NCBI GenBank assembly: GCA_947626155.1
Contig: CANQRC010000003.1
Location: forward strand, 1-47,092
Origin: an uncultured Clostridia bacterium
GTDB lineage: Bacteria > Bacillota > Clostridia > Christensenellales > UBA1242
Direction of reading: 5' to 3'
DNA: 47,092 bases
Shown: one piece after another, positions 3,649 to 46,213 of the stretch
How the letters are laid out: every line of letters begins with the position of its first letter
How positions within the stretch are numbered: position 1 is the first letter of the stretch
Translations under genes and position numbers: made by a program
Notes under the pieces: generated by a model
Told to the model about the DNA's origin: nothing
Databases searched by the model: none
Seen by the model: the letters and a program-made list of their open reading frames with translations, nothing else

Positions 3649-3660
3649 CAAATGAGATAA

Positions 3661-3703: not shown

Positions 3704-3709
3704 AAAAGC

Positions 3710-4753: not shown

Positions 4754-4765
4754 TTAAAATATAAA

Positions 4766-4794
4766 TTGACAAAATTCAATTTTGTTGTTATACT
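4766..4794 (+). promoter_or_regulatory. near-consensus promoter, leaderless layout (head of dnaB unit)
   Basis: TTGACA (4766-4771), 17 nt, TGtTATACT (hexamer 4789-4794), then 6 nt (tgtgat), then ATG 4801. No SD. Confidence 0.55.
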
Positions 4795-4800
4795 TGTGAT

Positions 4801-5052: not shown

Positions 5053-5064
5053 CGGAGGAAAAAT

Positions 5065-10085: not shown

Positions 10086-10145
10086 TCAAAAAAACGCAAA
10101 AAAATCAAAAAAAACAGTGATTTTTAACAAAAATTTGAGGTTTTT

Positions 10146-11446: not shown

Positions 11447-11494
11447 TAAAATATAAATTTGGGTCGATCTTGCCTGCCAATTTCGAGGGGTGCA

Positions 11495-11587
11495 ATGAAA
11501 AAAAATTTCTTTTTTCTTTTGATTATGATTTTCAGCATTTGCGGAGCGCTTAGTTATTTTGAAACGCCTGCGCAACTCTCTTATGCT
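11495..11587 (+). other. signal peptide of giant protein
   Basis: MKK, then a hydrophobic core FFFLLIMIFSICGAL, then ...LSYA before a polar mature sequence. Confidence 0.6.
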
Positions 11588-23500: not shown

Positions 23501-26500
23501 AATCTTGTTTCGGGCGAGGGTTTGGGCTTCACACTTACAATGTATGAAAACACCGCCGAGGCTGGGCAAGCTCCAGTTAAGGGCGGCATTGCAAAATATG
23601 TGAATGCTTCAAGCGACTATATTTTGGGCGGCGAAATTGATCCAACTGACGCAAACAGAAAAAACTATATTTTAAGCGTTGAAAATGTTGTGGGAAAAAT
23701 CACAAAGGCCACTCTTTATATTGTGATTGACAATTCAAAACTCATATTTGACTACGGCACACTTAAAAACGATGAAAATTTGCCTTTCACGTACGATGCG
23801 CCAGCAAGTGTAATTAACTTTAGTTCTTATCTTGAAGATGAAACAAGCAAGCAAAGGCTGGATTTTGACATTAAAGTGGATGCGGAAAATGCTTCAATCT
23901 CAACCTCGGGCTTCCTTGATGTTGGGTTCTATGATGTGAGAGTTTACACAAAAAGCGTTTTGGACTTTGATTTGCAATACATGGTCAATGGCACAATTTA
24001 CAATGCCGACGAAGGACGCATAAGGGCGGCAAGAGTTGAGATTGAGCAAATTCCTCTTACAATAACTGAAAAAGACGGACTTGCGCTTTCAACACTTTTC
24101 ACAAAGCGTTATGACGGCACAAAGACAATTGACTTCAAAGATGGTGACCAACTTAAATTTAATCTTGTTGGAGTTTTGGAGAAGGATTTGGTCACCCTTG
24201 AGAATGTTGAATATGAAAACAGCCTTGACGGCGAAAGAATTCCAATCATTTTCACATTTAATGGGGACGATGTTGGAAACTACAATTTGTCAGCAATTGT
24301 AGGAAGTTATTTTGGAACAATTACTGCTGTTCAAGTGAACATTGCCTTTGACACCAAGGCGGAAGCGGGAGATGAGATTGTAAATCAAGACGGCAAGGGT
24401 GTTTCAGAAATTATTGTAAAATATCCATTTGCAAGCGGAAACATCATGGCAAGTTCAGTGACTCCAGGTGCAATTTTCCCAACCGATATCAGAGGAAAAG
24501 CGGGGCACGCGTTCCTTGGCTGGTATATGCTCTTTGAAGATATTGAAGAAAACTCAAAGGAATATAATCTTTTGGTTAATTATTCTCAAAATATGCAGTT
24601 TACTTATTCCGAGAGAATTTTTAAGGTTAAAATTGAAAACAACACACTTGCTGTTGACTTCTTCAAAGCGCTTCTTGAGGACCAAACCTTGGGCTTCTAT
24701 TATCAAGATGAGAAGTTTACAACAAATGGACAGCCAATTACTTTCACACTTGAAGCAGATTGGTCGGTGAACTCTTATGAGGTTACAATCAATATTGTAG
24801 ATGAAAACGGGGACAAGTTTGCCGAGGAATATGATTTAGCAACAGTTAAATATGGCACAGCACAAACTTTAACACAAGAAACCGAAATGTTTGATATAAA
24901 GGGGCACACTTTCAGTCACATGGTTGTGTTCGACTACGGCTTTAAAGTTGGATTTATTCTTCCAGAGGATGCAAAATGCACCTTTATTGGCTTCTATTTG
25001 GGCACAACACCAATAAATGAGTTGGCCGACGATAATTTCAGGGCGGATTCTACACTTCTTTCCATAACAAACGTTAAAGAAGCTTATGAAATAAATTTGA
25101 GATTTAAAATCAGGACTGTGGAGGTCTCCCTTGACTTCTCTGATTGCAGGACTGCAACAGTGGCAAATACCGACGACTTTACTTCTCAGGGCGATAGGAT
25201 TTGGGCTTGGCAAACAAATTATTATGCTCTAAAAGAAAACAGCACATCAATAAAAGACTTGCTTGACCTTGCTCAGGTTCAGTTTGCGGGCTACAACCTT
25301 ACAAGCCTTGGCACCCACTCGGCAGAGCAGTTTGAACAGACGCATCTATTTGAAATTTTGCCAAGCGAACTGATAGATGACAGATATGTTTTGACGCTCC
25401 TGGGCAGTTTTGAGGCAAAACAAATAAGCGTGACCTTGCACTTTGGCTATGACAAAGATGAGGGCGAGGGTGAAAAGGTTGAAACGCACGAAATTACTTT
25501 TGACACAACATTTGGCGAGGCAGAATGGTGGCAAGAAACCCCAACAAGAGCGGGCTATGACTTTGTTGAATGGAGCACATCAAATTCGGGTGACGGACAC
25601 AAAGTTGACGGACAAACCCAAGTTACGCAAGAGGAAGCATATGTTCTCTATGCAATTTGGGAGAAGCAAAAAATCACAATTCACTTTGAAGTTGAAAACG
25701 CCACACTTGAATTCCAAGCTGTTGAGGGGCTTACAGTAATTCAATATGCTTGGGGATATGAAATAAAAGATATTGAGTATGCTGCGTCTATCATTTTCAC
25801 CATTACGCCAAGACTTGGCTATGGGCTTGGAGAACTTCCAAAAGAATTCTCAGTTGTGGAGGGCAACCGCTATCAATTTACCGTTCCGGCAAATCCAGAC
25901 AGAGAACAATTCTTGGTCTTCAAACTTCCTGTTAACAAAAACAACAACCAAGTTACACTTTCGGGCGACGAGCACGTTTCAACCGTTGCCGCTTTTGAGG
26001 GCGAAACTTCAAAAGATGTTGAGGCAGACCAATTTGAAGTGCTTACAGACACTGCGTTTAGAATTGAGGTTACCGCAGAAAAGGGCTATGAGATGACGGA
26101 GGAATTTTCTGTCACAGGAAACCCAGACGAAAACACAGACTTTAACATTTCTTCAAGAGTTAACACAATAATGCTTGAAAATGAGGAAAGGTCAGTTTTG
26201 ACCGTGAGCGTTACGGGGATAAAGAGCGGGCTAAACTTTGTGTTCTCAACTGCACCAAGAAGAAACACAATTTTGGTTGCATTTAAAGACCCAGAGGACA
26301 ACAACAGTTTGGAGGCAATTGACGATGTTTATTATAACGGCGCTTCACATACTGTCACCGAGAATCCACTTGCTCTCACCGTTTTAACGGGCACATCATA
26401 TGATTTCCATGTTAAGTTTGCTTATGGCTTCGACTATCAAAAAGGCGACTTTGAGGCGGACAAAATATCAGTAAGCGATGACGCAGTAAGCGAATATGAG

Positions 26501-29500
26501 GGATATGTTAAATTCACCATTTCTGGCGCGGAAACTGACGGAACAATTACAATTTCAACGCTGAGAAAGCAGTTTACTTTGACACTGAAAGTTGTTTCAT
26601 ATGACACCGAGGGCCAGTTGGTTGAAGATGTTTCAAATAATGTTGCTTTTGTAAATAACGAAAATGGAGCAGATGGCGTTTTGGTTGATTACAACACCGA
26701 GGCCATATTGACCGTTCAAAAAGCCACGGCATTTGATTTCGAGGGGTGGCTTGAAGATTACAACTCTCAGCCAATAAGTGGCGCTGAGCAATTCAGATAT
26801 AAAGTTGTGGCTGACAAGACGCTTTACGCGGTGTTCTACGAGGGTGAGTCATACAGAATTTGGTTTGGCACAGTGCTTCTTGAAGAAACCTTTGTTGAGC
26901 AAGAGCAAAACTTAGTTAAATATGAAGACTATAGAATTTATGACGATGGCGGGCTGTTCTTCGATAAAGATGAAGTTCAATTGCAGAGCGACTCTTCGGC
27001 ACAATTCTCATTCATTAAAAACATTTCATCAACAGAATTTATGTATGAACTGCCTTTGGGCTTTGACTTTGTTGGAGTTGGATATTATCTTAATGGCGAT
27101 TTTAAGGTGGCATTTAGAGGCGAGTTTGACACGCTTAATGGAAAGGCAATCTTCACACTTGCAGGAAGCCAACTTGCGTCAGATGTGACAAAGGTTTACG
27201 CTATTTTGCAAGCAAAAGATGTTGTGCTTAACTTTAGCTCCGAAATTGAAATTGAGGGCGCCATCTCAGAAGATGATGTTGATGACCCTGTTGGAGATGT
27301 GAGCATTAGAAGTGGCTCAAATGTTGTCAACAGTTTTGGATACATAAACTACACAAGAATTCACTATTCGGGTGAGGACTTTGTTGGCGGAAAACTGCTT
27401 TCCACCTCACAATTCTCTGTTATGGCATATTCAAATTGCAACTTTGAGTTCTTGGTGAAGATAAGAAAGAAAGGATATATGCTCAGCAGAATTGACTACA
27501 GCGGAGACATTTCAATTTACAATAAAGAAGAACAAACTGAGGACGGGCTTCTTTACACAATTTACATCCTTTCAACCAACACGGGAAGTTTTGACATAAA
27601 ACTTGTTTACACCTCACAACTAAACTTTGTTGACTTGTCTTTTGTAAGCGAGAGAACGGGCAATGATTATGAGGTTGATGGCGGCGTGTTTGACGTTCAA
27701 ATTGACGAAAACAGCGTTGGCAGAGCATGGACAACAAACAATCAAACCGCAATGGCCACTGTTTCTGGCTACACCAATGTTGGCTTTAAAGTCACGGCAT
27801 ACATAAGGGCAGGCTTTACTTACAAGGGGTTGTTTGTGCTTGCGGCTGATGATATGGACATCATCACGGCCGAGGCTTTGTATGAGACACTTGTGATTGA
27901 AGACACAGGCTTCACAGGAAAAGTAACATTCAGCGTTGCTAACTTCTTGGATTTAAACAAAGTTAAAATCATCTTGACGCCAACAGTTTACACGGTTTTG
28001 TTCAAAGACGACAACACAACGCTTTTGACAAAAGAAGTTTACTTCTATGAAAACTTCGAGTTTGACAATGTTGAGATGTCTAAATTGCAGGCCAAAAAGA
28101 CAAATTATGTTTATCAAGGCTACTTCACAAGACAAAACGGCGCAGGAAAACTTTATGTCAACTCCGACATTATGTTTGTTGGGCCTTGGCTTGAGAATGG
28201 ATATGTTCTAAACTCAATCACGCCAACAAAATTTGTGCTTGAAGACAACGCACAAAAGTTGCCTGATGGAACAATTGAGATTTCGCTTTACCTTTATATG
28301 TCTTACTTAAAGACAAGAATAACATTCTCGTTCAACACTCCTCTTGACTTTGGCTTGACTGCAAAAGATTTGATTTCTGGAATAGATGATTATAATTCTT
28401 GGTATTACTTCACAGAACCTATGAGCATAGAGGTGGCTTACGGAACGGATATAAGATTTGTTGGGCCAAAGATTTCGGGCTATGAATTTTATAAGATGAT
28501 CATCTCTCAGCGCAGACCAGGCGAGAGCGATTGGACCGAAATTGACACCTCAAACTACGGAAGCTCAAACAACATTCCTTGGCTTTCAGATGAGGCAGAC
28601 CCATATGCAGAATGCAGAGTTGAACTTTGGTATTTCAGAGAAATAAGCGTTCAAATAAGGGGTGGGCTTGGTAAGTTTACACTTTCCCAGGATGGCTATG
28701 ATGCTTCAAGCAGGGGAAATGCTTATGCGCTCAACCAAAAAGGCTACTATGACCCTAACAAAGAGGTGACAGTCACCGCTGAAGCAGATTATGGTTATGA
28801 GTTTGTGTCTTGGAGTTCTTATCCACTTATTGGCAGACCTACAACAAACCCTGTTTACACCGTTACTCCTGCCGCAACCAGACAATTGTCGCTAAGGCTT
28901 GTCTTCGCTGGAAAGGGCGTGCTCTTAAGGTTTGAATATGACAACACAAACGGGAAAATTACCGAAGCTTCAAGAAAGGGATTTGATGGGGAAAGCCTTG
29001 GCGCAATCCAAAATCCAACAGATTTCAGTGTATTGGTTGGTGACACGCTGACGCTTTGCGTGTATAACTCTCCAAACTACGGCCTGTCTTGGACAATTAG
29101 ATATTCTCTTGGCGAAACTCAGGCATTTACAGATATCAAATTTGTGAAATATCAAAGTGGTCACCAATATTTTGAGTTTAAAGTTTTGCCAGAATTTATT
29201 CCGGTTGACTGGACGGAGGGCTACTTCCCAGAAGTTGTCATCACTCCAATTTTTGAAAGTGAGAGGCTCTCTGTGTTTATCACAACTTCCTTATCAGAGG
29301 ATTTGGAAAACGCCGTGGATGAAAACAATGTTAAAAACATAGGTTATTTGACTTATCTTGGCAACGCCGTTGAATCCTTCACCGCAGATATATCCTCAGA
29401 TATCCAAATTGAAGTTGTGGCTATGGACAGATATTCAATTTCTCAAATAACAATCACAAACAAAGGGAATGTTCTTGACGATTTGACCCTCTTTGACGGC

Positions 29501-30064
29501 AAAACAATCACGCTTTCAAGTCAGTTTATTGCCGACAATCAAATTGAAGGCTCTGTTGGAATTGATGTTGTGTTTGCGCGCGAAGAATGGGAAGATTTGA
29601 CACTTGAAATAGAGGAGTTGTCGGGGCTTGGCACAAACGAAAATCCATTTTCAATTTCAAGCATAGAAGATTTAATCTTGATGATGAGGCTTGTAAATGG
29701 CGGAGAGGTATCAAGGCGAGGAATTAAATATGCTGATGCTTCATATGTTTTGCTTGCAGATTTAAACCTCAACGATAAATTCTGGACGCCAATTGGCACA
29801 GAGGAAAATCCATTTAACGGCAAGTTCAACTTCAACGGGCATAGGATTGACGGCGTCAACAACGCAATCTTCTATGAACAAGTTTATTACTTTGGCCTGT
29901 TTGGAGTGCTTGGCCCTCGCGCCACACTTCTCATGCGCGCCGAGACATACTGGTATATTTACCTCATTGTGTTTGGCGCAATTGTTCTCTTGGTTGTCCT
30001 GTTTATAGCATTCTTCTACGCGAGAAAGAGAAAGAAAACAATAGATGAACTTTCAAAAAAATGA
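11495..30064 (+). CDS. giant (about 6,189 aa) cell-surface repeat protein / putative adhesin with signal peptide and C-terminal TM anchor
   Basis: Uninterrupted ORF. ATG 11495 is preceded by GAGGGG (11485-11490). The N-terminus MKKNFFFLLIMIFSICGALSYFETPAQLSYA is a signal peptide. The body is modular (see sub-features). The C-terminus has a hydrophobic helix plus RKRKK. No LPXTG-like motif was seen near the C-terminus. Confidence 0.9.
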   Translation: MKKNFFFLLIMIFSICGALSYFETPAQLSYAVSTNVSTWDLNGKDSYEDLGGSDFQGVTESEYFATSNAAYINSARGFAYFAYLVNNNKDTMSTKTVYLNVDVDLGDYEWKPIFNFQGDFNGQGHYVYNLKITKVTQSSGQYYAGLFGSYSASSKKSISNLHLRNADINIQNGVSGTAYVGGILGGLGVNALSSSNSASVSNCSVKGNISVKSSSGSVDVGGVIGGVWNNDGVSKIMSSGKITVDAANINVGGLVGSFVSGALKNSYSEADITLNSSNETSVKNVGGLVGYLKDSASNSSSWYTRVANVSDSYFKGVVNTPQSYVRVGGIVGRMDVLGAEENNTISNVFNVGQITAGNVSTNASKAGLVGWATWQTGKTGSGLLKNSFAKDFSTEQLFKTNSSSSGSQSFSGKGLVGSELANLDEFSKTKGFYENEKFWETENAWDFENTWEIQSGLNEGLPYLRGVYQMGAANNDQDLSQQAQLRGAGTAQNPYLIETAGDFAYLTSTSTIWNGNYFSLQNNIDMSNKTWVPIGNENNPFSGVFDGNGFTISNLTSSYLNAFSSIGLFGQTQNAVIKNLTIENCDFYSTASAKIGAFVGTAGSETYLINVKNSTSYNAVGDGNVTKIKGKLNAEGRENFDGYDITIDPNGGTFYSPNKQAYRGEYHIILREDGSVLSQEIDTTFGRSIPDISTQYGKADTIIRRGYKRLGFSASKEDNVVSDAGAEVLTDAEQILAAAKENLQLYTVWLSGADGALLTQELYVVYNQYEVANFDAELNSGASYLTSKFYSQNREFNLDGFGATYGHGETIDGINEDNVYAKFQLIYDAQTEEYENVLWGEPEYSDGTVKKLRDGFVVAGLHTGFDGTDFEDDVISPSFGFINEQFSPVLYAEWKGLPSSGGSEGNYSQKLKITFKKSIDSTQKWTGFDNFTWEEVFGISKEKNVHLEGISTDEQVHTYSQNSIGSQTEDLVVEFTFGTNYSDRANNYLHLYTDNIQAGFNMGRASLKNSPEDTNFGKLKTTLDVDDETGLHNFDISGTKIYNLVGDNELEIYIERQEIFSDVTISDNVQFALSPFVEVEGASSYEISITKGEESKAISAEEQIFGYDFKNNQVLLMSKDGAIKEESLTDEFKLDTADEKLLFTVTYHLNDADTQKFYYVYKYEQKGDNNWLALYSADEDGNEKLLIMALKDVEATNKEIQSQLVTFSNSKQNFALIYKTEEGFSVSTREPNFLEAVKVEGKEGDAVVRGYFGYKDVNEFAGRGIALLTSYNSIFLNYNFEYDGNRNQELFDTFKQASTLVSQANYQTTTDGPTSELSMAANAQKYFRLNTSAKVTLVSVELQKDAQGQTPAAVNNEYTISEPFSFNIDLDEGKEKLVAGQYTVTVHFEDVTYSVNYGAKFVSHSNMKNFESLVGKGENYTTLLKDYDGDYLTVSENLQDAQEKSSKLENADAEVKLLQKTDLLYNDEISLKQNEENVGKIGVNYYGFYLRTNTGRELNKRVEYSNTLGAIYDGVSRTTGEDSAVGKYILNVIVIFEVREMTLEVSNTIIVENFDNTGVESHATLNKDLKIEFSSTPKKYEYKNISGDGQSTTLNFAFPISSQGNEVGYDIVGVRILHGGEKVDLDDGQWESENSGTPNAFEKDFKETFDKLLENQTETTQNYSFQIVVKQKVAEIILHSGAGETYRQENSRAGKVTNSNGEDVTNNAYTTTAYFGGSTVSLTDGTVMIGEKAEFIRNLFVTRYGYTPNGWNIHYGGDGELEDLYIGYSFTFNLSTQQYSTYEDGSYKFHIYMCWDALGFKISFDSNGGEERVADLSIDFDEKIDFNSLKTVSRAGYSFKGWALQNNLLFEYSGTQFSIANAVISGDSVIISDTKYFAKDGDEWLYAYSGNIQLLAQWEANSYKVTVDFNRKSAGGETKTFDIIYEKQDEFKKILSDEELLNLTRSKFTFAGIYYILNDNLVQLLESNLLVNGEMGVDITSHTAAGTNVLTLYVGWTFDYENGYSLELTDKDFEQQVYDGSAKTIDLSKKFTADNIASKSGFVIPGKDGKFIGVEEDNNVSLSFEVDGQARDQFTVSQTNAGQYIFYLTLVLTDNSKNVSGQDIVGQVAISFTFTITPASVDAQTDDEQYRFVFAKMIIEPYYIKSEIDELENFEAIVSYLSEKESARAGDADTLLTTAEPQDAFNYIIFKHYNLGITTGTQYVDYKNWTYQDYLDYKEENGEEVENVRNLLTYFDYFTYGSQEKNFEASFSSQGIFSLGELATKDELSITSIKIYTDVASFMPNLSYTLRVFVDAKDKQKLNNFYLSTDGEDYYFDFGNATLLKEVLEVNNHSDYDFAYYMMTSSSRVEAGFDADIENEQLQDKIKLAKDALKTKYGRDFYLVDAERLIFASANVFTSTTGSAEKDTTYTFKQEGDFLHFDNVLAYALKDIEVEPNLFEFENVSSIFNLTMNESYEFKILGLQDVYHIVLQANYFTQQDGEFVTSVLDATTLQELKVSTDFLKDFLYISDVRYTSNESVGMLSLDDTKSLSERKRVYADERVFIADIMTMNGYQIDIYVSRAVTQITFNTKQFINNNVGIFAWKNSDMVSESELKAQWTLPISYTWEAETVADQEFSAQTISLYAIYTDLIYVSYNNIPGEDEIPAERRSHALIKLGVSTYDDVYKPEVSGFTLDSLIYSGDITFKGLFANGGEGIYHPTFYDANSPASIFKCVDITCYWTMDVDILYEAFNGDNYVYTTDIYDFTDTWNVNTLLHIRNENNVLFDYSYKWVKVLDGEEKVISQTEEFALEGKGSYAESGKYKLYITSNLKEKYSKYVAEDGVRGGKTDYTFTLNFVRRKLTSITPSNTTADYNGREQISDWSITFTYTNSRGREASYSSTYSPDSAFLIKYEDAETKSMKDAGVYTIRYTISSDDYDISELDQDSYNVFDENGTYYYQFEYTINAIVVEIDTFEVEKTFNTLVGQTVFIQNVTVSQTNETIAVELTRDESHKSDEHVGEYSLYLDGSGEYTKNYILKKGETTLVDKGEILDTKTVLGTLKIKQSGGLTVTFEDLTTSTYTTSFKKEGFSFEITTQDGKIVLKIVSGGNAEQTYNLQLLDKSAGSVITEKVILDILIENLSDITESFRSEANGETATTVKNSGTYYYETQIGENFLKYYQTFEISNAFKFVIEKAKINSDTWKISKTYDGTNTLNLNLQGEALEDETEMYVVATFTSGFHAGTNLRVTLALAGESEDLSNYTLTKTEFEDGEIKQRNATITFGTTKTQYEYGEVSASNFKTILQRESVKDGGTDVSNILYDNTYELSYELTAKEDNLTQSDRGFYYVGTYTFKIQTISSQDFVFTIEVPTFSIVAKNVTHVVTPVSRTILDSVETDITDTYTDPVTGDVITLHYTIKETDYNNNGRYKQGTYNFVLSSCTSDPEKLKDNFNISIDENNNGLTVTVAATTLYVEISDEQILSQTYNAKTYEFQVSGSALSLKNSTQEQTSVNLTFYIKTDENGGRETITSVDASGLTIYSGRETDTTFKDAGTYTLLLKGTVDGYTAVSFAKKYDFVIGKVTLTVSDETVTKTYDKTTKISSISVTGAISGDDVVVSGEFEDSNVNKVVDGEVQLWNVQLSLSGTAASNYALSKDTIKGEIQKADAEIEYSGQTTAIFGEIDKNFSFDSKVTVKATDKSEVARSQYELSVSISRTADGDLYSEANYLHAGSYTITFSAVESATRNYNITQKSITLTVTARQIQIVFVTSGQIKAFFGDKSTQTNQIDYVYTVPRYNETISLVLTREKAETNAIGYYKITGATVKTGETYSDDYSISSVSDNTPEGEGAYQIVAPDVPLYVLLGEADTINKNSYSDLLKIEYDGKVYSSISIGGDAETGYELVVTSSDGETSHRFKISFYTVDEAGQVYTKHDAVAGLSSQFSYVGALSKDVGTYAMRAYSTVAGDYSQNVKLGLYGEQNCFKLSITQRKVTLKVADNIFSREFTNAQAVYHFTSAESQDMLSNLVSGEGLGFTLTMYENTAEAGQAPVKGGIAKYVNASSDYILGGEIDPTDANRKNYILSVENVVGKITKATLYIVIDNSKLIFDYGTLKNDENLPFTYDAPASVINFSSYLEDETSKQRLDFDIKVDAENASISTSGFLDVGFYDVRVYTKSVLDFDLQYMVNGTIYNADEGRIRAARVEIEQIPLTITEKDGLALSTLFTKRYDGTKTIDFKDGDQLKFNLVGVLEKDLVTLENVEYENSLDGERIPIIFTFNGDDVGNYNLSAIVGSYFGTITAVQVNIAFDTKAEAGDEIVNQDGKGVSEIIVKYPFASGNIMASSVTPGAIFPTDIRGKAGHAFLGWYMLFEDIEENSKEYNLLVNYSQNMQFTYSERIFKVKIENNTLAVDFFKALLEDQTLGFYYQDEKFTTNGQPITFTLEADWSVNSYEVTINIVDENGDKFAEEYDLATVKYGTAQTLTQETEMFDIKGHTFSHMVVFDYGFKVGFILPEDAKCTFIGFYLGTTPINELADDNFRADSTLLSITNVKEAYEINLRFKIRTVEVSLDFSDCRTATVANTDDFTSQGDRIWAWQTNYYALKENSTSIKDLLDLAQVQFAGYNLTSLGTHSAEQFEQTHLFEILPSELIDDRYVLTLLGSFEAKQISVTLHFGYDKDEGEGEKVETHEITFDTTFGEAEWWQETPTRAGYDFVEWSTSNSGDGHKVDGQTQVTQEEAYVLYAIWEKQKITIHFEVENATLEFQAVEGLTVIQYAWGYEIKDIEYAASIIFTITPRLGYGLGELPKEFSVVEGNRYQFTVPANPDREQFLVFKLPVNKNNNQVTLSGDEHVSTVAAFEGETSKDVEADQFEVLTDTAFRIEVTAEKGYEMTEEFSVTGNPDENTDFNISSRVNTIMLENEERSVLTVSVTGIKSGLNFVFSTAPRRNTILVAFKDPEDNNSLEAIDDVYYNGASHTVTENPLALTVLTGTSYDFHVKFAYGFDYQKGDFEADKISVSDDAVSEYEGYVKFTISGAETDGTITISTLRKQFTLTLKVVSYDTEGQLVEDVSNNVAFVNNENGADGVLVDYNTEAILTVQKATAFDFEGWLEDYNSQPISGAEQFRYKVVADKTLYAVFYEGESYRIWFGTVLLEETFVEQEQNLVKYEDYRIYDDGGLFFDKDEVQLQSDSSAQFSFIKNISSTEFMYELPLGFDFVGVGYYLNGDFKVAFRGEFDTLNGKAIFTLAGSQLASDVTKVYAILQAKDVVLNFSSEIEIEGAISEDDVDDPVGDVSIRSGSNVVNSFGYINYTRIHYSGEDFVGGKLLSTSQFSVMAYSNCNFEFLVKIRKKGYMLSRIDYSGDISIYNKEEQTEDGLLYTIYILSTNTGSFDIKLVYTSQLNFVDLSFVSERTGNDYEVDGGVFDVQIDENSVGRAWTTNNQTAMATVSGYTNVGFKVTAYIRAGFTYKGLFVLAADDMDIITAEALYETLVIEDTGFTGKVTFSVANFLDLNKVKIILTPTVYTVLFKDDNTTLLTKEVYFYENFEFDNVEMSKLQAKKTNYVYQGYFTRQNGAGKLYVNSDIMFVGPWLENGYVLNSITPTKFVLEDNAQKLPDGTIEISLYLYMSYLKTRITFSFNTPLDFGLTAKDLISGIDDYNSWYYFTEPMSIEVAYGTDIRFVGPKISGYEFYKMIISQRRPGESDWTEIDTSNYGSSNNIPWLSDEADPYAECRVELWYFREISVQIRGGLGKFTLSQDGYDASSRGNAYALNQKGYYDPNKEVTVTAEADYGYEFVSWSSYPLIGRPTTNPVYTVTPAATRQLSLRLVFAGKGVLLRFEYDNTNGKITEASRKGFDGESLGAIQNPTDFSVLVGDTLTLCVYNSPNYGLSWTIRYSLGETQAFTDIKFVKYQSGHQYFEFKVLPEFIPVDWTEGYFPEVVITPIFESERLSVFITTSLSEDLENAVDENNVKNIGYLTYLGNAVESFTADISSDIQIEVVAMDRYSISQITITNKGNVLDDLTLFDGKTITLSSQFIADNQIEGSVGIDVVFAREEWEDLTLEIEELSGLGTNENPFSISSIEDLILMMRLVNGGEVSRRGIKYADASYVLLADLNLNDKFWTPIGTEENPFNGKFNFNGHRIDGVNNAIFYEQVYYFGLFGVLGPRATLLMRAETYWYIYLIVFGAIVLLVVLFIAFFYARKRKKTIDELSKK
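11783..11890 (+). other. head motif 1 (W-x-P-I ... F-x-G-x-F-N/D-G-x-G-H/F)
   Basis: VYLNVDVDLGDYEWKPIFNFQGDFNGQGHYVYNLKI. Confidence 0.5.
11921..12660 (+). repeat. GLUG-like glycine-rung beta-helix repeats
   Basis: About 25-35-aa periodic rungs: YAGLFGSY, VGGILGGLG, VGGVIGGVW, VGGLVGSFV, VGGLVGYLK, VGGIVGRMD, KAGLVGWAT. Confidence 0.55.
12953..13255 (+). other. head motif 2
   Basis: GAGTAQNPYLIETAGDFAYL...YFSLQNNIDMSNKTWVPIGNENNPFSGVFDGNGFTISNL...IGLFGQT...IKNLTIENCDF. Confidence 0.55.
16520..17490 (+). repeat. Listeria-Bacteroides-type (InlB B-repeat-like) repeats, cluster 1
   Basis: FKISFDSNGGEE...SRAGYSFKGWAL...LLAQWEANSYKVTVDFN...SKFTFAGIYY...LTLYVGW, and upstream RYGYTPNGWNIHYGG. Confidence 0.55.
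17510..24350 (+). repeat. array of diverged MBG-like (Y-D/N-G / Y-G) Ig-like repeats
   Basis: Recurrent module boundaries include QQVYDGSAKTIDL, TADYNGREQISDW, ISKTYDGTNTLNL, KTQYEYGEVSAS, VTKTYDKTTKIS, GEIQKADAEIEYSGQTTAIFGEI, GKITKATLYIVIDNSKLIFDYGT, FTKRYDGTKTIDF and VGNYNLSAIVGSYFGTITAVQV. Confidence 0.5.
24475..25690 (+). repeat. Listeria-Bacteroides-type repeats, cluster 2
   Basis: GKAGHAFLGWYM, NSYEVTINIVDENGDKF...IKGHTFSHM, ISVTLHFGYD...PTRAGYDFVEWSTSNSGDG...YVLYAIWEK. Confidence 0.5.
25700..29600 (+). repeat. chain of degenerate ~90-110-aa beta-sandwich modules ending in [AVT]-x4-G-Y/F-x-h (divergent B-repeat-like)
   Basis: FTITPRLGYGLGEL, IEVTAEKGYEMTEEF, HVKFAYGFDYQKG, VQKATAFDFEGWLED, LVKIRKKGYMLSRI, VTAYIRAGFTYKGL, KKTNYVYQGYFT, VGPKISGYEFYKM, VTAEADYGYEFVSWSS, VYNSPNYGLSW. 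Confidence 0.4.
29630..29915 (+). other. head motif 3 (membrane-proximal, followed by a single rung)
   Basis: GTNENPFSISSIEDLILMMRLVNGG...YVLLADLNLNDKFWTPIGTEENPFNGKFNFNGHRIDGVNN...YYFGLFGVLG. Confidence 0.55.
29948..30022 (+). other. C-terminal transmembrane anchor of giant protein
   Basis: YWYIYLIVFGAIVLLVVLFIAFFYA, followed by a RKRKKTIDELSKK stop-transfer tail. Confidence 0.7.
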
Positions 30065-36203: not shown

Positions 36204-36818
36204 ATGAAAGAACTTGATTTTATGTTGGCTCTTGATCAACTTGAAAAAGTTAGGGAAGAGATTTCCCAAAAAAAGCAAGAATTGAGCGAATATGAAAAAA
36301 GAATAAATCAAGAAGAGAAAAGATTATTTCGAAAAGCGGCTCAAAGCGGAGTGTTTAGAATTAGCCTTGGCGAATTTGTTAAGGAATATAAAAAAATCAC
36401 AAATAAAAAGCGAGCCAAAATTGGCAAGCAAGAAATTGAGGAAATTTTGCTTGTTGACACAATAATTTGCCGCGACGCAAACGGCGAGAGAATAACAAAC
36501 AAAGCTGATCTTAATAAGATTGAGAAGGTTTCTTTAAATGTTGACATTATCGTTGACGGCTATAGCGCCTTGTCATTGGAGGACATTGAATTGAACCCTG
36601 ATGACAGACTTGCAGATGGAACGTGGCTTAAAGATGCATTAAAAGACAACGGCTGCGCCGATATGCTTATGTTTAAAAATGAGGCTCTGCTTAGGGACGT
36701 GATTGTTGACTTTTCTCCAGAGTCAAGCGCAATGAAAAGTTGCGTGGAAGTGCGTGATACAGTTTTAGAGGTTGTTGCTCAAAAGGCAGTTCATGTGCAC
36801 GAGCATTTTAAAGACTGA
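36204..36818 (+). CDS. hypothetical protein with N-terminal coiled coil
   Basis: Strong SD. N-terminus LDQLEKVREEISQKKQELSEYEKRINQEEKRL is heptad-like. The C-terminus carries VHVHEHF. No family recognised. Confidence 0.6.
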   Translation: MKELDFMLALDQLEKVREEISQKKQELSEYEKRINQEEKRLFRKAAQSGVFRISLGEFVKEYKKITNKKRAKIGKQEIEEILLVDTIICRDANGERITNKADLNKIEKVSLNVDIIVDGYSALSLEDIELNPDDRLADGTWLKDALKDNGCADMLMFKNEALLRDVIVDFSPESSAMKSCVEVRDTVLEVVAQKAVHVHEHFKD

Positions 36819-39543: not shown

Positions 39544-39855
39544 CTATTTATGCAAAAAAGTCACGCAAAGGGGCTTTTCTTTCAGGTCGTTCACAGTTAT
39601 TCCGTTTGCCACACATTTGCCGTCACTATTAAAAAGGCAAACCGCGTTGCAGTTTATGTCCAGCGTGGCGGAATCCCTCTGCGGTGCATACTTGGGTGGT
39701 GTGTCAGTGAAAAGCCACTTTGTCTTGTCCACCGCGGGCTTGTCACCGGGTTCGAATTTGTCGCACTCGGTGTTTTTTCTTATCAAAATTTCTTTTGCCT
39801 TGCAAGTGTATCTGTCGTTGTAGGCACACTTTGTTTTTCTGCATCTTATATCCAT
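39544..39855 (-). CDS. Cys-rich DUF1540-like protein
   Basis: Two copies of a C-x(2,3)-C-x-(Y/F)-N-x(3,4)-C-x-A motif (CRKTKCAYNDRYTCKA and CNAVCLFNSDGKCVA). GAGG SD upstream on the minus strand. Confidence 0.55.
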   Translation of the reverse strand: MDIRCRKTKCAYNDRYTCKAKEILIRKNTECDKFEPGDKPAVDKTKWLFTDTPPKYAPQRDSATLDINCNAVCLFNSDGKCVANGITVNDLKEKPLCVTFLHK

Positions 39856-39886
39856 TTTTTACCTCACAATTATTGTTGTCCAATTC

Positions 39887-39915
39887 TTGACAAAAAAAAC
39901 GCAATGTTGTAAACT
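39887..39915 (+). promoter_or_regulatory. candidate promoter for rplI
   Basis: TTGACA (39887-39892), 17 nt, TAAACT (39910-39915), then a leader with an AGAGGTG SD before ATG 39933. Confidence 0.4.
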
Positions 39916-40610: not shown

Positions 40611-40639
40611 TTGCAAATGCAAAAAAAGTATTGTATAAT
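40611..40639 (+). promoter_or_regulatory. promoter, leaderless layout (417-aa orphan)
   Basis: TTGCAA (40611-40616), 17 nt, TATAAT (40634-40639, preceded by TG), then 6 nt (aatcac), then ATG 40646. No SD. Confidence 0.55.
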
Positions 40640-40645
40640 AATCAC

Positions 40646-41899
40646 ATGAAAACAAAAAAGAGGAAAAAATCTTTTGGGGTTGTTGAAGGGGAATTCAAAA
40701 CTCCCCAGCCAAGCGCCGAGGACAAACTTATAAAAGATTTTACGCAACTTTTATATTATCAGCGAAAGCAAAAAAACAATTTGCTTGGAGATTTTGCGGA
40801 CGGGAAATATGACATCAGGGACGAAAACATTTTAAAAGCCCTAATAAAACTGCCAAAGAAGTTTGAAAATCAAGAGGGAGATTCAATATATGTTTCTTCG
40901 AGGCTGGACGACTTTGTTTTAAATTTTAGAATTGACATGGATGTTTCCTACTCATATTGTGACGCTCGAATTTGGCTTATAGAAATTGAAAATGGCGCGG
41001 AAGAAGACATAAAACACCTCACTCAACTGGACCGAATTGTGGAAATTTATTCCCAGGAATTTAGGCAGAAAACCCTTGATGGCTGGAATGTTTATTATGA
41101 TGACCAACAAATTGAAATTGACCAATATTTAAAAAACTTTTTGAGGATGCAACGCGAAGAATATTTGTTCAGCCAAGAACTTGTTGCCATTTTGTCTCAG
41201 CTATATCTGGTTAGGATGCTAAAACTTTTTGACACACTTGGGGAGGACGGCGAAAAACTTAAAATGGAATACAGAAAGTTGATGGAAGAGAAGCTCAGCG
41301 CCGACCCATCACTTTCCCAAGACTTTGCTTTTCAAAAAGAGGTTTTGGACTATGTGATCATGAAAAACAACGCCTTGCCAGAAATTTTGAAGACGGCAGA
41401 GGGCAAGGCGGTGCTTGAGGGCTACATCAAGCCCATCACAAACATCAAAGAGAAGAGGTTTGAGACAATCACCGAGGACGCCAAGGCAGAGAAAAAGCAG
41501 GAAAAGAAAACCGTTGCCGCTGCCAAGCCAAAGGTTAAATCTGGCGGCTCAAAGACGGTCACAAAGCCAACGCCAAAAATTGATTATGGAAAAATATTTG
41601 GAAAAGATGCTCCAAAATTTTCAGCTCCAAGCCCAGTTGTTACGGTTGTCATTCCAGAAATTACTCCAAAGAAGGGAGCGCCAACTGTTGCGCCACCTAC
41701 AAAAGAGCCACCTCTCCGCGGAATTCCCACGCCATCAGCAAAAACTCCACCAGCCGAAAGAAAGCCTTTGCCTGGCGTAGGTGGTGGTCTTGGTGCGGAA
41801 CCTGAAGCCGAGTTGGGTGGCGAGGAGAAAGAATTGGGCACCGAAGAAAAAGGCAAACCACCAAAGACATTAGATGGTGGATTAGGAAAGCCTCTTTAA
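40646..41899 (+). CDS. hypothetical protein with Pro/Lys/Gly-rich disordered C-terminal tail
   Basis: The ORF runs from ATG 40646 (the track's TTG 40631 lies inside the -10 box). There is no signal peptide. The last ~130 aa are low-complexity (KPKVKSGGSKTVTKPTPK...APPTKEPPLRGIPTPSAKTPPAERKPLPGVGGGLG...). Confidence 0.6.
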   Translation: MKTKKRKKSFGVVEGEFKTPQPSAEDKLIKDFTQLLYYQRKQKNNLLGDFADGKYDIRDENILKALIKLPKKFENQEGDSIYVSSRLDDFVLNFRIDMDVSYSYCDARIWLIEIENGAEEDIKHLTQLDRIVEIYSQEFRQKTLDGWNVYYDDQQIEIDQYLKNFLRMQREEYLFSQELVAILSQLYLVRMLKLFDTLGEDGEKLKMEYRKLMEEKLSADPSLSQDFAFQKEVLDYVIMKNNALPEILKTAEGKAVLEGYIKPITNIKEKRFETITEDAKAEKKQEKKTVAAAKPKVKSGGSKTVTKPTPKIDYGKIFGKDAPKFSAPSPVVTVVIPEITPKKGAPTVAPPTKEPPLRGIPTPSAKTPPAERKPLPGVGGGLGAEPEAELGGEEKELGTEEKGKPPKTLDGGLGKPL

Positions 41900-41918
41900 T
41901 TTGAATTTCACAAAAAAA

Positions 41919-41946
41919 ACAAGTGTTTTGACACTTGTCTTTTTTT
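41919..41946. terminator. bidirectional intrinsic terminator
   Basis: ACAAGTGT (41919-41926) pairs with ACACTTGT (31-38 of 419xx, i.e. 41931-41938), 4-nt loop. It is flanked by an A-run upstream and a T-run downstream, between convergent genes. Confidence 0.65.
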
Positions 41947-41952
41947 ATAATT

Positions 41953-42426
41953 TTACCAACGCCTTTTTGCTTCGCCTGTGTAGTTTGTGATTGGATTTGG
42001 AGAATTTTTTTGAACATATCCGCATTCCCTAGCCGTTTCATAGTTCTTGGCAATGCAATCTCTTAATGTGTCTTCCCATTCTTTTTCCAATGTTTCGATT
42101 TTGTAATTTGAATTTAAAGAACGGTTGTAAAGTTTAAGGAGTTCGTCTCTATCTGGAACATACATAGGCTTTCCTTGTCTTGCAAATCCCGAGAAATATT
42201 GGTTTATCTGAGAATTGAAAAGTTCTGACAAATTGCCAAGAACCTTTTTTTGATCTGAGGTTAATGGACCTCTGACAAAAATAGCGAAAGTTGAGTCATA
42301 ACGCAACAAATCATTTCTTAAAGCTCTAGCAATAAAAGCAAGTTTTGCAACCTCTTCTCCATCCTCATCCAATACTAATTCAGCAAGAGGTTTTGTGTCT
42401 GTAATTTTTTTTGTATATATTGACAT
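41953..42426 (-). CDS. hypothetical 157-aa protein
   Basis: ATG 42426 is preceded on the minus strand by an AAGGAG SD (MSIYTKKITDTKPLAELVLDEDGEE...). The track's longer start at 42540 lacks an SD. No family recognised. Confidence 0.6.
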   Translation of the reverse strand: MSIYTKKITDTKPLAELVLDEDGEEVAKLAFIARALRNDLLRYDSTFAIFVRGPLTSDQKKVLGNLSELFNSQINQYFSGFARQGKPMYVPDRDELLKLYNRSLNSNYKIETLEKEWEDTLRDCIAKNYETARECGYVQKNSPNPITNYTGEAKRRW

Positions 42427-42545
42427 TTTTCTTCTCCTTAATTTTTTAGTTGTCCTTATTATAACATGAAATTTTTTATTTGTAAATACCCTTTTTAAAA
42501 ATTTTTGCATATTTTTGGCTCTATTTTGCAAGATATTCATAAGTT

Positions 42546-44374: not shown

Positions 44375-44399
44375 AAACATTGAAAACACACAGGCGGAA

Positions 44400-44435
44400 A
44401 AATCTAAATCTCAAAGGTTTAGATTTTTATTTTTA
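44400..44435 (+). terminator. intrinsic terminator after hup
   Basis: AAATCTAAA (44400-44408) pairs with TTTAGATTT (44418-44426), followed by TTATTTTT. Confidence 0.6.
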
Positions 44436-44442
44436 ATATGGG

Positions 44443-44472
44443 TTGATTTTGTCCCATGTGCTTTGTTATAAT
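44443..44472 (+). promoter_or_regulatory. promoter of the four-gene wHTH/Cys-rich/GIY-YIG-like/mini-FtsZ unit
   Basis: TTGATT (44443-44448), 18 nt, TGtTATAAT (hexamer 44467-44472), then an AAGGAGGGG SD and ATG 44490. Confidence 0.55.
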
Positions 44473-44489: not shown

Positions 44490-44762
44490 ATGAAGAAATC
44501 CAAAAAACTTATTATTTTGTATGTCTATGACGCGTTAAGATATGGAAGTGCTGAAGACTGTTTGTTGCATCAAACAAAAATGGCAGAGCAAATAAGCAAA
44601 TTTTGTGGCGTGCCATGTGACAGAAAAACAATTGCGCGCAACATCAACTATCTTCGTGAATATGGCTGTGACATAGTGACAATTAAGGGCAAGGGCTGTT
44701 ATATGAGGTCGTATCCGTGCCTTGGACAAACTATATTTATAAAAAAGAAAAACAATGTTTAA
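44490..44762 (+). CDS. small winged-helix-turn-helix DNA-binding protein
   Basis: 90 aa. KKLIILYVYDALRYGSAEDCLLHQTKMAEQISKFCGVPCDRKTIARNINYLREYGCDIVTIKGKGCYM resembles the N-terminal wHTH of DeoR/WYL-type regulators (R-K-T-I-x-x-x-I-x-x-L-x-x-x-G-x-x-I). Confidence 0.55.
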   Translation: MKKSKKLIILYVYDALRYGSAEDCLLHQTKMAEQISKFCGVPCDRKTIARNINYLREYGCDIVTIKGKGCYMRSYPCLGQTIFIKKKNNV

Positions 44763-44773
44763 GGAGGAAAGCT

Positions 44774-45067
44774 TTGGAGCCAATTCGACCATTTATAATG
44801 CCACTCTATAAATGCAAAAAATGCGGCAAAATTATTTGTGAGCCGCAGTTGAAATCATTTTGTTTTACTTATGGAGATTATAAGTGTTGCGGGCGCTGGT
44901 GTTTGTGTGAAGATTGCATTTTGCAAGGGGCAACAAAGCCCAAAAGCGCATATTTTACAAAAACGGTTTTGAGCAAAAATTTTGCTGTGTTTTTGAAGGA
45001 ATTGGCGGAAATAATTTCTCAATTTAAAGTGAATGTAGAAGACGTTTTTTATGAGGAGGAAAAATGA
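44774..45067 (+). CDS. Cys-rich (zinc-ribbon-like) small protein
   Basis: TTG 44774 lies 6 nt after AAGGAGG (44761-44767). The alternative ATG 44798 lacks an SD. There are nine Cys in 36 residues: CKKCGKIICEPQLKSFCFTYGDYKCCGRWCLCEDC. The stop overlaps the next ATG (ATGA). Confidence 0.5.
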   Translation: MEPIRPFIMPLYKCKKCGKIICEPQLKSFCFTYGDYKCCGRWCLCEDCILQGATKPKSAYFTKTVLSKNFAVFLKELAEIISQFKVNVEDVFYEEEK

Positions 45068-45531
45068 AAAAAGAATTTTTTAACCAGTGTTTTGAGTTTG
45101 GAGGAACAGTAGGAAATTTGCACGAAGATAAGGGCAACTATAATGGAATTTATATGATTGTTCTTCCAGACAATTTTGGCAAAATTGGCTTTGAAAAACA
45201 AAGCAAATTGAAAATTTGGAGAGGCGAAGAGGTTTCAGTTCCAGTGGAAACGCTTCAGGAAAAATGGGTTGAAAATGCAGAAGTTTTGTATATAGGAAAA
45301 TGTTCTTCAAAAACAAAAACCGCAAAAAAACTTGTTTTAAAGCATATTGCTTTTTGGAACGGGAAAAATGTTTCGGCTTATGGCGGCAAAGTTATTGGGC
45401 AAATACAAAATTTTGACAATTTGCAGGTGTGGTATTTGGAGTGTGACAATCCTTCACAAATGAAGGACAGGCTGTTAAATGCGTTTGAAGAGCAATATGG
45501 AAATTTGCCTTTTGCCAATTGGCAACATTAA
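45064..45531 (+). CDS. GIY-YIG-like nuclease-superfamily protein (tentative)
   Basis: NGIYMIVL ... VLYIGKCSS ... KKLVLKHIAFWNG ... YGGKVIGQI ... LQVWYLE ... MKDRLLNAFEEQYGNLPFANWQ. GAGGAGG SD. The GIY-to-YIG spacing (~45 aa) is unusually long. Confidence 0.45.
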   Translation: MKKEFFNQCFEFGGTVGNLHEDKGNYNGIYMIVLPDNFGKIGFEKQSKLKIWRGEEVSVPVETLQEKWVENAEVLYIGKCSSKTKTAKKLVLKHIAFWNGKNVSAYGGKVIGQIQNFDNLQVWYLECDNPSQMKDRLLNAFEEQYGNLPFANWQH

Positions 45532-45540
45532 GGTGGCGCT

Positions 45541-46170
45541 GTGGAAAACCCTGTTGGCAACAAAAAAATCAGTCTTGTTGGCATTGGCGACTATGGAATC
45601 AGCGTGATAAGAGATTTTGGCGGAAACCTTTTAAATGTTGAGTGCCTAGAAATGAACACGGATTGGGCTTTTATGAACATAGGCGGCAATACTTTTATAA
45701 AAATTGGCACAAAAACAACGCTTGGAATGGGCGCAGGCGCGCTTGCAGCTGTCGGCGAAAAGGCGACAGAAGAAGACAAGCAAACAATAACTGACAGTTT
45801 AAGCGGCTCTCAACTCTTGCTTATTGTCTCGGGGCTTGGCGGCGGAACGGGTTCTGGTGCGTCGCCTGTGGTTGCAAGCATAGCAAAAAAATTAAATATT
45901 CCCACCATTGCTTTTGTCACAACGCCACCCAAATTTGAGGGCGAAATTAGGCGTCACAATGCACAGTCGTCCATTGATAAACTAAAAAAGATTGTGGATG
46001 TTTTATTTTCATTTCCAAGCGAAAGTTTGGAGGCTGGCATTGTGTTTAATGAGACGGACAAAGCTATCAAAAAAAGCATTCTTGAGGTGTTAAATTTGAT
46101 TGATTTGGAGGCGACAAAAAACAAAACAATCCAAGAAATTTTGGAAGAGATTGAATTTAAAAATTTTTAA
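45541..46170 (+). CDS. FtsZ/tubulin-superfamily paralog consisting of the N-terminal GTPase domain only (209 aa)
   Basis: GTG start 4 nt after AGGTGG. It is colinear with the FtsZ N-domain: ISLVGIGDYGISVI (degenerate T1), NTD, IKIGTKTTLGMGAGA, LLLIVSGLGGGTGSGASPVVASIAKK (tubulin signature), IAFVTTPPKFEGE, DVLFSFPSESL. It ends after the H7-like helix, so there is no T7 loop or C-terminal domain. Confidence 0.75.
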   Translation: MENPVGNKKISLVGIGDYGISVIRDFGGNLLNVECLEMNTDWAFMNIGGNTFIKIGTKTTLGMGAGALAAVGEKATEEDKQTITDSLSGSQLLLIVSGLGGGTGSGASPVVASIAKKLNIPTIAFVTTPPKFEGEIRRHNAQSSIDKLKKIVDVLFSFPSESLEAGIVFNETDKAIKKSILEVLNLIDLEATKNKTIQEILEEIEFKNF

Positions 46171-46180
46171 TGTGAGCGTT

Positions 46181-46213
46181 AAAAAAAATTGGGAGAAATT
46201 GCCCAATTTTTTT
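46181..46213. terminator. bidirectional intrinsic terminator
   Basis: AAAAAAAATTGGG (46181-46193) pairs with CCCAATTTTTTT (46202-46213), 8-nt loop. It lies between the mini-FtsZ stop and the convergent asnS stop. Confidence 0.7.

Follow-up and report, generated by a model that had tools for sequence, protein, structure and literature searches.

The window analysed here, a stretch of 47,092 nucleotides (nt) that constitutes the entire 47-kb contig CANQRC010000003.1 of an uncultured Clostridia bacterium (GenBank assembly GCA_947626155.1), carries near its right end a short gene of the tubulin/FtsZ superfamily, named here mini-FtsZ. The open reading frame (ORF) occupies positions 45541-46170 of the forward strand, begins with GTG and encodes 209 amino acids (aa) comprising the FtsZ N-terminal GTPase domain, helix H7 and a vestigial T7/H8 segment. 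It is the last cistron of a compact four-gene operon, preceded by genes for a small winged helix-turn-helix (wHTH) protein, a Cys-rich protein and a protein with GIY-like motifs. The frame had been pointed out in a preliminary description of this DNA, and all the motifs quoted there were found in the translation. The Shine-Dalgarno sequence assigned to the gene was also located (AAGGTGG, 45530-45536), 4 nt upstream of the GTG, and mini-FtsZ homologues begin at the equivalent residue (M-E-...). The convergent asnS gene, on the reverse strand, begins at 46222, 52 nt past mini-FtsZ, and an A/T-flanked hairpin lies between the two genes (AAAAAAATTGGG/CCCAATTTTTTT, 46182-46213), built on a 12-nt perfect inverted repeat (I15) with a minimum free energy of -13.4 kcal/mol (z = -3.06). 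An immediate terminator had been proposed at this place; the hairpin is indeed there, but it was not called by a consensus terminator scan. It is probably a bidirectional terminator.

Mini-FtsZ matched the Pfam family Tubulin (PF00091) with 94.9 bits and an E value of 9.6e-27 (cut-off 33 bits), with no Pfam match to FtsZ_C (PF12327). The ftsZ profile TIGR00065 was matched with 129.9 bits at its positions 15-212 of 353 only, the equivalog cut-off being 295.2, and FtsZ chains of the Protein Data Bank (PDB) matched residues 11-164 with E about 1e-30. An AlphaFold2 (AF2) model built on an alignment of 21 family sequences (mean predicted local distance difference test score, pLDDT, 87; predicted template modelling score, pTM, 0.88) showed strands S1-S6 and the associated helices, followed by a long H7 (165-191) and then by one more short, H8-like helix (197-207). 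Compared by Foldseek with FtsZ structures from S. aureus, B. subtilis, M. tuberculosis and others, the model gave E values of about 1e-19 and a template modelling (TM) score of about 0.8 when normalised to the query vs. about 0.54 when normalised to FtsZ; mini-FtsZ thus corresponds to half of an FtsZ molecule. Its C-terminus (...EEIEFKNF) directly follows the H8-like helix, with no linker and no tail peptide for binding FtsA, SepF or ZipA. Profile, signature and fold all place mini-FtsZ in the tubulin/FtsZ superfamily. It does not qualify as a cell-division FtsZ as defined by TIGR00065, since its score lies below the cut-off and the T7 catalytic motif, the C-terminal subdomain and the tail are all missing, in agreement with the original proposal of a protein with the GTPase domain only.

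A broken ftsZ or a sequencing error could be ruled out as the origin of the short frame. When the window was searched in all frames by tblastn with full-length FtsZ, nothing was detected past residue ~205, so that neither a downstream remnant of the C-terminal domain nor a recoverable full-length frame is present; asnS begins only 52 nt further on, and the end point is common to the whole family described below. The same search detected no second FtsZ gene in the window.

To locate what has been kept and what has been lost, column conservation was compared between 23 family members and 70 canonical FtsZ sequences aligned together. The T1 glycine scaffold G14/G16/G19 (GxGxxG), T2 N39-T40-D41, T3 G62/G64/G66 (GxGxG), the T5 residues P129, F132, E133, G134 and R137 (PxxFEGxxR) and D173 in H7, which we take from FtsZ structures to be the guanine-contacting Asp, were conserved in both groups, as was the tubulin signature of T4 (G100-G-G-T-G-S-G106), which was invariant in the mini-FtsZ family. 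As read from this alignment, the motifs kept make up the pocket for the nucleotide and a large part of the top face, and the bottom-face elements (the T7 catalytic residues and H10/S9) are gone or vestigial.

Residues that are near-invariant in canonical FtsZ and changed in the family include the Asn of T1, the Asn-Pro of T3, the Asn of T6 and the T7 motif, and the Gln of T2 is replaced by Ala after a family-specific Trp (NTDW). The T1 loop reads G16-D-Y-G19-I-S in the window protein and G-D-Y/F-G in the family, with Asp in place of the second canonical glycine. This replacement, previously taken as a sign of degeneration, is real; however, tubulins use G-x-x-G in T1 (GQCG/GQAG), and as G-D-Y-G keeps that spacing, the loop is altered but not necessarily dead and the term degenerate may overstate the change. 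The claim that the T7 loop is absent had to be corrected, as the sequence N194-K-T-I-Q-E199 aligns without indels with the canonical (I/V)-N-(L/V)-D-F-A-D, meaning that a vestigial T7/H8 is present from which the catalytic aspartates have disappeared. The family consensus at this position is (E/N)-K-S-(M/I)-K-(D/N/E), compared to N (93%), D (91%), F (93%) and D (94%) in canonical FtsZ, and after it comes an amphipathic, H8-like helix that carries the family motif EKSxKxILK.

A search of 5.8 billion proteins revealed ~22 clusters of relatives with PF00091 only, 200-248 aa in length and 41-55% identical to the query, all of them from ENA or Logan metagenome assemblies, and below them a clear step to canonical two-domain FtsZ, at 34-42% identity to mini-FtsZ. 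The members end at the same point, and the populous clusters hold 69-95 sequences. When 1.84 billion representatives were searched exhaustively with a HMMER profile, only ~7 representatives of the family (at 50% clustering) came up, with 240-352 bits, compared to 196 bits or less for canonical FtsZ. The distant short member P0059 scored 194 bits, within the canonical range, and was included in the family on account of a G-D-F-G T1 loop, a short length and the gene context. In this set the family forms a very small island, clearly set apart from canonical FtsZ, and two surveys of the superfamily do not describe a family of stand-alone half-FtsZ proteins. In pairs of mini-FtsZ genes whose products are 57-62% identical, the ratio of non-synonymous to synonymous substitution rates (dN/dS, NG86 method) was 0.24-0.47, supporting that mini-FtsZ is a functional protein. 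The low dN/dS of these diverged pairs, the common end point and the lack of any remnant bear out the earlier suggestion of a dedicated short gene. The roles suggested for it at the same time, capping of FtsZ filaments or nucleotide sensing, are plausible at most.

High-scoring proteins of 731-840 aa (P0052, P0054-56) in the exhaustive search were rejected as family members, being tandem canonical FtsZ in which the scores of the two domains add up. Apparent fusions of mini-FtsZ with a protein resembling uracil-DNA glycosylase (UDG; P0212, P0216 and P0221, 418-442 aa) carry W, both at the junction and at the C-terminus, in exactly the places of the stops of the unfused genes; judging by the protein sequences, they are probably gene calls that read TGA as Trp and not real fusions. 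Protein P0017 (248 aa), like the fusion calls, has a C-terminal extension with W where other copies stop and was probably called in the same way.

Regarding the distribution of the family, a single member was found among the matches listed from GTDB species-representative genomes, in a metagenome-assembled genome (MAG) of an uncultured Clostridia bacterium, a figure that is a lower bound, as the taxonomic spread may be wider. One homologue of the wHTH protein is annotated as belonging to a Clostridia bacterium, and the genes near mini-FtsZ loci are typical of spore-forming Firmicutes (gpr, ytfJ, spoVA, mcsB and clpC); the window itself encodes Gate-domain proteins, possibly SpmA/B. In INPHARED phages, IMG/VR and PLSDB no member of the family was found, and matches were only at the identity levels of canonical FtsZ. 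A match on a Marinomonas plasmid (H19) was discarded as mini-FtsZ because it is a full-length-type FtsZ-like protein of 320 aa. This divergent gene (positions 4947-5909 of locus L071, on the 149-kb Marinomonas algicola plasmid NZ_CP061942.1; 31% identity over 96% of the length) is annotated as a hypothetical protein, not as FtsZ-like, and is adjoined by one gene with a PcfJ domain and another for type I restriction (HsdR). A different short FtsZ-like protein, P0042, of 204 aa with G-D-A-G at T1, is encoded in a 2.14-Mb genome (locus L060, 6842-9199), where its gene overlaps the end of another, 389 aa long, which has faint Pfam matches to Mg_chelatase and AAA_lid_2; a gene for a 197-aa protein of no known family follows that of P0042. 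The 389-aa neighbour is possibly a MoxR-type AAA+ protein, and the locus may represent a short-FtsZ system in its own right, of the MoxR-centred type treated in PMC7159879.

The operon that mini-FtsZ closes is headed by the gene of the 90-aa wHTH protein (44490-44762, forward strand, as are the other genes of the operon), which has weak HTH_11/HTH_36 and BirA-N matches and is presumed to be the autoregulator of the unit. Then follow the gene of the Cys-rich (CxxC...), zinc-ribbon-like protein (44774-45067; 97 aa; TTG start inferred from homologues) and that of the 155-aa protein with GIY...YIGK motifs (45064-45531), whose start overlaps the stop of the former (ATGA). The Cys-rich protein is 47-60% identical to the proteins in the same position at four other loci (L051, L059, L061 and L068) and gave no Pfam or PDB match. 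The 155-aa protein belongs to a family of 7 clusters, and its AF2 model (pLDDT 90.7) found as best Foldseek match the GIY-YIG enzyme R.Eco29kI, although weakly (E 0.19, TM 0.37); from motifs and model, it can tentatively be assigned to the GIY-YIG superfamily of nucleases.

Upstream of the wHTH gene, a promoter overlaps a palindromic operator-like motif (44438-44472, forward strand). The promoter-like site (44443-44472) is of a strong sigma-A type, with a TTGATT -35 element, 18-nt spacing and the extended -10 element TGTTATAAT (10 of 12 matches, with TG), and the palindrome ATGGGTTGATTTTGTCCCATG covers 44438-44458. The same motif precedes the wHTH gene in 9 independent versions of the cassette at 18 loci (the window, L001-4, L009, L051, L052, L059 and L061-69, collected from look-ups with mini-FtsZ, P0244, P0251 and P0274); wHTH loci of the L072 type did not match the pattern. 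At the left edge stands a terminator-like hairpin followed by a T-run (AAAAATCTAAATCT/AGGTTTAGATTTTT, inverted repeat I7, 44398-44428), whose stem is maintained in L052 and L001 with changes on both arms; the block that blastn finds in common among the window, L001, L009 and L052 starts precisely at window position 44398. Inspection of the promoter revealed no GAAC-N4-GTTC box of the kind expected for LexA/Cheo-box control. No convincing att-like repeats flank the cassette, and no iterated centromere-like repeats were seen, only the single operator palindrome. Mini-FtsZ, the Cys-rich protein, the GIY-like protein and the UDG-like protein of related loci had no match in PADLOC-DB, where the wHTH protein gave only noise (E about 0.003); PHROGs contained no match to any cassette protein, and the wHTH protein had no phage match. 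When loci were compared, the wHTH protein was 74-83% identical where mini-FtsZ was only 43-58% identical, the former being the slowest-evolving gene of the cassette and the latter the fastest in every pair compared.

The gene order of the window cassette (wHTH, Cys-rich, GIY-like, mini-FtsZ) is shared by L068. In L051 and L059 the wHTH and Cys-rich genes directly precede mini-FtsZ, in L001 and L009 a UDG-superfamily-like gene stands between the wHTH gene and mini-FtsZ, and shorter arrangements were found in L053 (UDG-like and mini-FtsZ), L005 and L052 (GIY-like and mini-FtsZ) and L056 (UDG, GIY-like and mini-FtsZ). In L061 the wHTH, Cys-rich and GIY-like genes are followed by DUF1810 and other genes, without mini-FtsZ. 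The flanks differ in every locus seen. The window cassette is inserted among housekeeping genes, with holB, PSP1/yaaT, tatD, ksgA, rplI, murJ and hup upstream (murJ/hup being its immediate flank) and asnS downstream; the corresponding flanks are clpC/hpf and rpsT in L001, uvrC and hisS in L009, a giant ORF and rplA-rplK-nusG in L068, a glycosyltransferase gene and a radical-SAM gene in L005, and enolase and the SCIFF maturase in L056. The L001 and L009 copies share a block of 2,124 nt with 97.6% identity and no similarity beyond it, so that the cassette was recently moved or duplicated between two unrelated contexts. In uncultured Clostridia, the unit behaves as a cassette that is mobile or accessory.

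The preliminary description had not recognised that mini-FtsZ closes a self-contained, wHTH-led cassette which occupies different chromosomal sites with interchangeable partners. This context shifts the framing of the protein from a paralogue of the division machinery to the cargo of an accessory or mobile module.

Cassettes led by the wHTH gene with other cargo adjoin mobile-element genes: large serine recombinases with cI/Cro-like HTH pairs in L065, and a rolling-circle Rep and a serine recombinase in L072-L077. In these units (L061, 3615-8192; L065, 5001-8026; L072-L077, about 1475-6138) a wHTH protein of 80-97 aa heads unrelated cargo, such as DUF1810, DUF4268, a 278-aa protein and a 190-aa protein, the last two of no known family, and they often have as direct neighbours large serine recombinases, a rolling-circle Rep (PF23343), a DUF3990/HTH_3 pair or WYL proteins; the promoter/operator motif is present at the L061- and L065-type copies. 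The wHTH-led units seem to form a class of accessory cassettes, each headed by a regulator, that has so far gone undescribed in Clostridia.

Further features were noted around the cassettes. Directly after mini-FtsZ, a non-coding block of ~370 nt was found in L001 (8733-9095), L009 (6715-7081) and L005 (8637-8998), better conserved than mini-FtsZ itself (71% identity between L001 and L005), containing 34-mers that are perfectly conserved, among them GTAAACGAATATTCTTTGTTGTCAAGGTTAAAAT, as well as several inverted repeats able to form hairpins; it has no convincing Rfam match and no conserved ORF, and is absent from the window. In L059, mini-FtsZ is followed (1641-5891) by genes for an 864-aa two-barrel RNA polymerase (Rpb2_6 plus Rpb1_1), which we take to be YonO-like, for a Y-family polymerase (IMS) and for a protein with a faint YolD match, these downstream genes being presumably of SPbeta-prophage type. 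In L053, a cpYpsA (SLOG) fragment, a gene with a weak RE_endonuc match and a Zn-ribbon protein lie upstream of the UDG-like/mini-FtsZ pair (3355-4709), and a ypsA gene lies 3.6 kb downstream of the pair (9760-10323); YpsA of B. subtilis is a division-inhibiting SLOG protein, and its proximity to mini-FtsZ in L053 may be a coincidence. The window also holds a single ORF of 6201 aa (11459-30064, forward strand) that takes up 40% of its length; the giant ORF immediately upstream of the cassette in L068 (at least 2988 aa) showed no significant similarity to it by tblastx. Elsewhere in the window, ORFs of 288, 382, 204, 120, 422 and 195 aa (within 6435-8446, 36204-36818, 39550-39912 and 40631-42540) gave no Pfam match.

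Considering the pocket and the large part of the top face kept, the bottom face lost and the context of the gene, the reading that we tentatively prefer, with a probability of roughly 0.4, is that mini-FtsZ is a conditionally expressed FtsZ mimic that would dock at the plus end of an FtsZ filament, or on FtsZ monomers, and block elongation. The tight operon, the conserved promoter/operator and the wHTH head gene suggest conditional expression, and the operon may normally be repressed, as a division inhibitor would require. From sequence, predicted structure and gene context, we infer the following course of events. Relief of the repression exerted by the wHTH protein would lead to expression of the operon and hence of mini-FtsZ, which would bind GTP and, like an incoming subunit, present its FtsZ-like top face to the bottom face of the host FtsZ. 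Having no bottom face of its own, the bound mini-FtsZ would not allow any further subunit to add, so that growing filament ends would be capped, or monomers sequestered, and cell division would be delayed. Mobile elements often carry FtsZ inhibitors (Kil, DicB, CbtA), and engineered bottom-face mutants of E. coli FtsZ reportedly act as toxic cappers, as Du et al. are said to have described in PNAS in 2018. The C-terminal or bottom face of FtsZ is the plus end and the common target of SulA, MciZ, MinC and MipZ, and capping at this face is very effective in shortening and disassembling treadmilling filaments (PMC11938149, PMC9897490).

A number of observations weigh against such a mimic. Mini-FtsZ is the fastest-evolving gene of the cassette, whereas the mimic of a highly conserved surface might be expected to be better conserved, and dN/dS is about 1 in the closest pair, although calculated from only 8 non-synonymous and ~2 synonymous changes. 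The canonical residues lost include G21 (replaced by D) and N25 of T1, Q48 of T2, the N-P of T3 and N165/166 of T6 (S. aureus/E. coli numbering). The T6/H6 segment, which presumably contributes to the top face of FtsZ, is variable in the family, and ~10 of its residues are gone uniquely in the window protein. In the close relative P0009 of L068, T1 reads G-M-G-G and T2 H-A-D, so that GTP binding may not be universal in the family. Finally, the only studied precedent, FtsZ3 of A. tumefaciens, with a partial GTPase domain, is dispensable and diffuse (bioRxiv 10.1101/412759).

As an alternative to the mimic, mini-FtsZ could be a monomeric sensor or switch for GTP/GDP, or for another nucleotide, that never touches FtsZ and serves as a regulatory subunit for the DNA-acting enzymes encoded alongside it (GIY-YIG-like, UDG-like) or for the wHTH regulator. 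The features that the family has in common with FtsZ come down essentially to the nucleotide pocket, and mini-FtsZ is always co-transcribed with small proteins resembling nucleic-acid enzymes, which are swapped from locus to locus (GIY-like, UDG-superfamily-like or a true UDG). Yet these partners are interchangeable, L051 and L059 have neither the GIY-like nor the UDG-like protein, mini-FtsZ being accompanied there by the wHTH and Cys-rich proteins alone, and the wHTH-Cys-GIY unit exists without mini-FtsZ in L061; thus, no obligate partner is evident. The base-contacting Asn residues have moreover been lost, and T1 and T2 are degenerate in P0009. A sensor is regarded as unlikely.

Less probable still is that mini-FtsZ serves as a decoy or bait in a conflict (defence) module, mimicking the host FtsZ for phage factors that target it, and either soaking up these factors or triggering the adjacent nuclease-like effectors. 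The cassette is accessory or mobile with variable effector-like partners, its mini-FtsZ evolves fastest, as in an arms race, and related wHTH cassettes lie in islands with recombinases, DUF3990/HTH pairs and WYL proteins. Inactive homologues of division proteins, rare FtsZ/tubulin domains included, were described as conflict effectors by Kaur et al. (2020; PMC7159879), who propose that such inactive copies could bind viral proteins. Against this, no cassette protein is matched in PADLOC, and the phage, IMG/VR and plasmid collections hold no family member as a phage counterpart. Known phage FtsZ inhibitors mostly target the bottom/C-terminal face or the tail, and both are absent from mini-FtsZ. 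The more specific version in which a catalytically dead bait is coupled to the interchangeable GIY-YIG-like or UDG-like partners, as a cytoskeletal guard or decoy immune module, appears slightly more doubtful again.

It is about as improbable as that last version that mini-FtsZ is a decaying relic, a functionless truncated duplicate of ftsZ that rides in the cassette. The high divergence, the dN/dS of about 1 in the closest pair, the loss of several canonical residues, the extra deletions or degenerate motifs of individual members and the lack of a phenotype for FtsZ3 in A. tumefaciens (10.1101/412759) would fit such decay. On the other hand, intact ORFs of similar length with a common end point persist in ~22 clusters, some with 69-95 sequences, the residues of T4, T3 and T5 do not vary, dN/dS is 0.24-0.47 between more distant members, and a conserved family-specific C-terminal helix (EKSxKxILK) stands in place of the missing domain.

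Very improbable, finally, is an arrangement like the type III partition system tubR-tubZ, in which the wHTH protein would bind DNA repeats and mini-FtsZ would polymerise by a new interface to position or segregate DNA: a small wHTH gene does lie upstream of a tubulin-superfamily gene in both cases, but TubZ is a polymerising GTPase, complete with two domains and a C-terminal tail, and TubR acts on iterated centromere repeats, whereas mini-FtsZ has neither the T7 catalytic residues nor the bottom face for canonical protofilaments and matches Tubulin_2 (PF13809) only with E 0.11 and 12 bits, there is a single operator palindrome without iterated repeats, other genes lie in between, the cassette is located on the chromosome and would be too small to require partition, and the wHTH gene also heads cassettes without an FtsZ-like gene.

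Compared to canonical FtsZ, mini-FtsZ has a clearly homologous N-terminal GTPase domain and H7, at 34-40% identity, in which the fold is the same, the signature intact and the T2, T3 and T5 elements conserved; it differs in lacking the catalytic T7 aspartates, the C-terminal beta-sheet subdomain, the linker and the membrane-anchor-binding tail, in having G-D-Y-G in T1 instead of G-G-G-G, and in being encoded in an accessory cassette instead of the dcw cluster. The nearest described thing is FtsZ3 of A. tumefaciens (Atu_4215), a natural FtsZ homologue with only a (partial) GTPase domain and without C-terminal linker or peptide, which stands alongside a full FtsZ (bioRxiv 10.1101/412759). By its description, the basis of this comparison, FtsZ3 is nevertheless an alphaproteobacterial lineage-specific paralogue, non-essential, diffuse and without phenotype, for which no cassette context has been described. 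With SulA, MciZ, the N-terminal domain of MinC and MipZ, which are conditionally expressed or spatially controlled, mini-FtsZ would share the action of occupying the FtsZ bottom face to cap or sequester, a functional analogy only; these inhibitors have no sequence or fold relation to it, whereas mini-FtsZ would be a derivative of FtsZ itself, a case of self-mimicry. FtsZl1/FtsZl2 (Makarova and Koonin 2010, PMC2875224) and the tubulins of conflict systems (PMC7159879) are likewise divergent, with eroded polymerisation elements and accessory neighbourhoods. However, FtsZl1 combines its FtsZ-like domain with a coiled coil and an alpha-helical C-terminal domain in membrane-remodelling operons (PMC2875224), compared to one short helix after H7 in mini-FtsZ, and the conflict-system tubulins are linked to GAP1/DO-GTPases, vWA and HSP70 (PMC7159879), none of which is found here.

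If the FtsZ-mimic reading is true, mini-FtsZ would be a dominant-negative subunit derived from FtsZ itself, nature's equivalent of the engineered bottom-face mutants that established the kinetic polarity of FtsZ. The inhibitors of FtsZ that have been studied to date are proteins or peptides not related to it, which evolved to grip the plus-end face, and a half-FtsZ would be a different solution. Since it has no C-terminal domain, mini-FtsZ cannot undergo the R/T conformational switch; as a capper, it would therefore be a minimal genetically encoded probe of treadmilling and of this switch, and also a template for division inhibitors, whether peptides or proteins, directed at Firmicutes. The small wHTH gene and the conserved operator, in turn, would define a so far undescribed class of cargo cassettes. 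Taken with its cargo, the cassette suggests that mobile or accessory modules of gut-type Clostridia may manipulate or monitor the division of their hosts.

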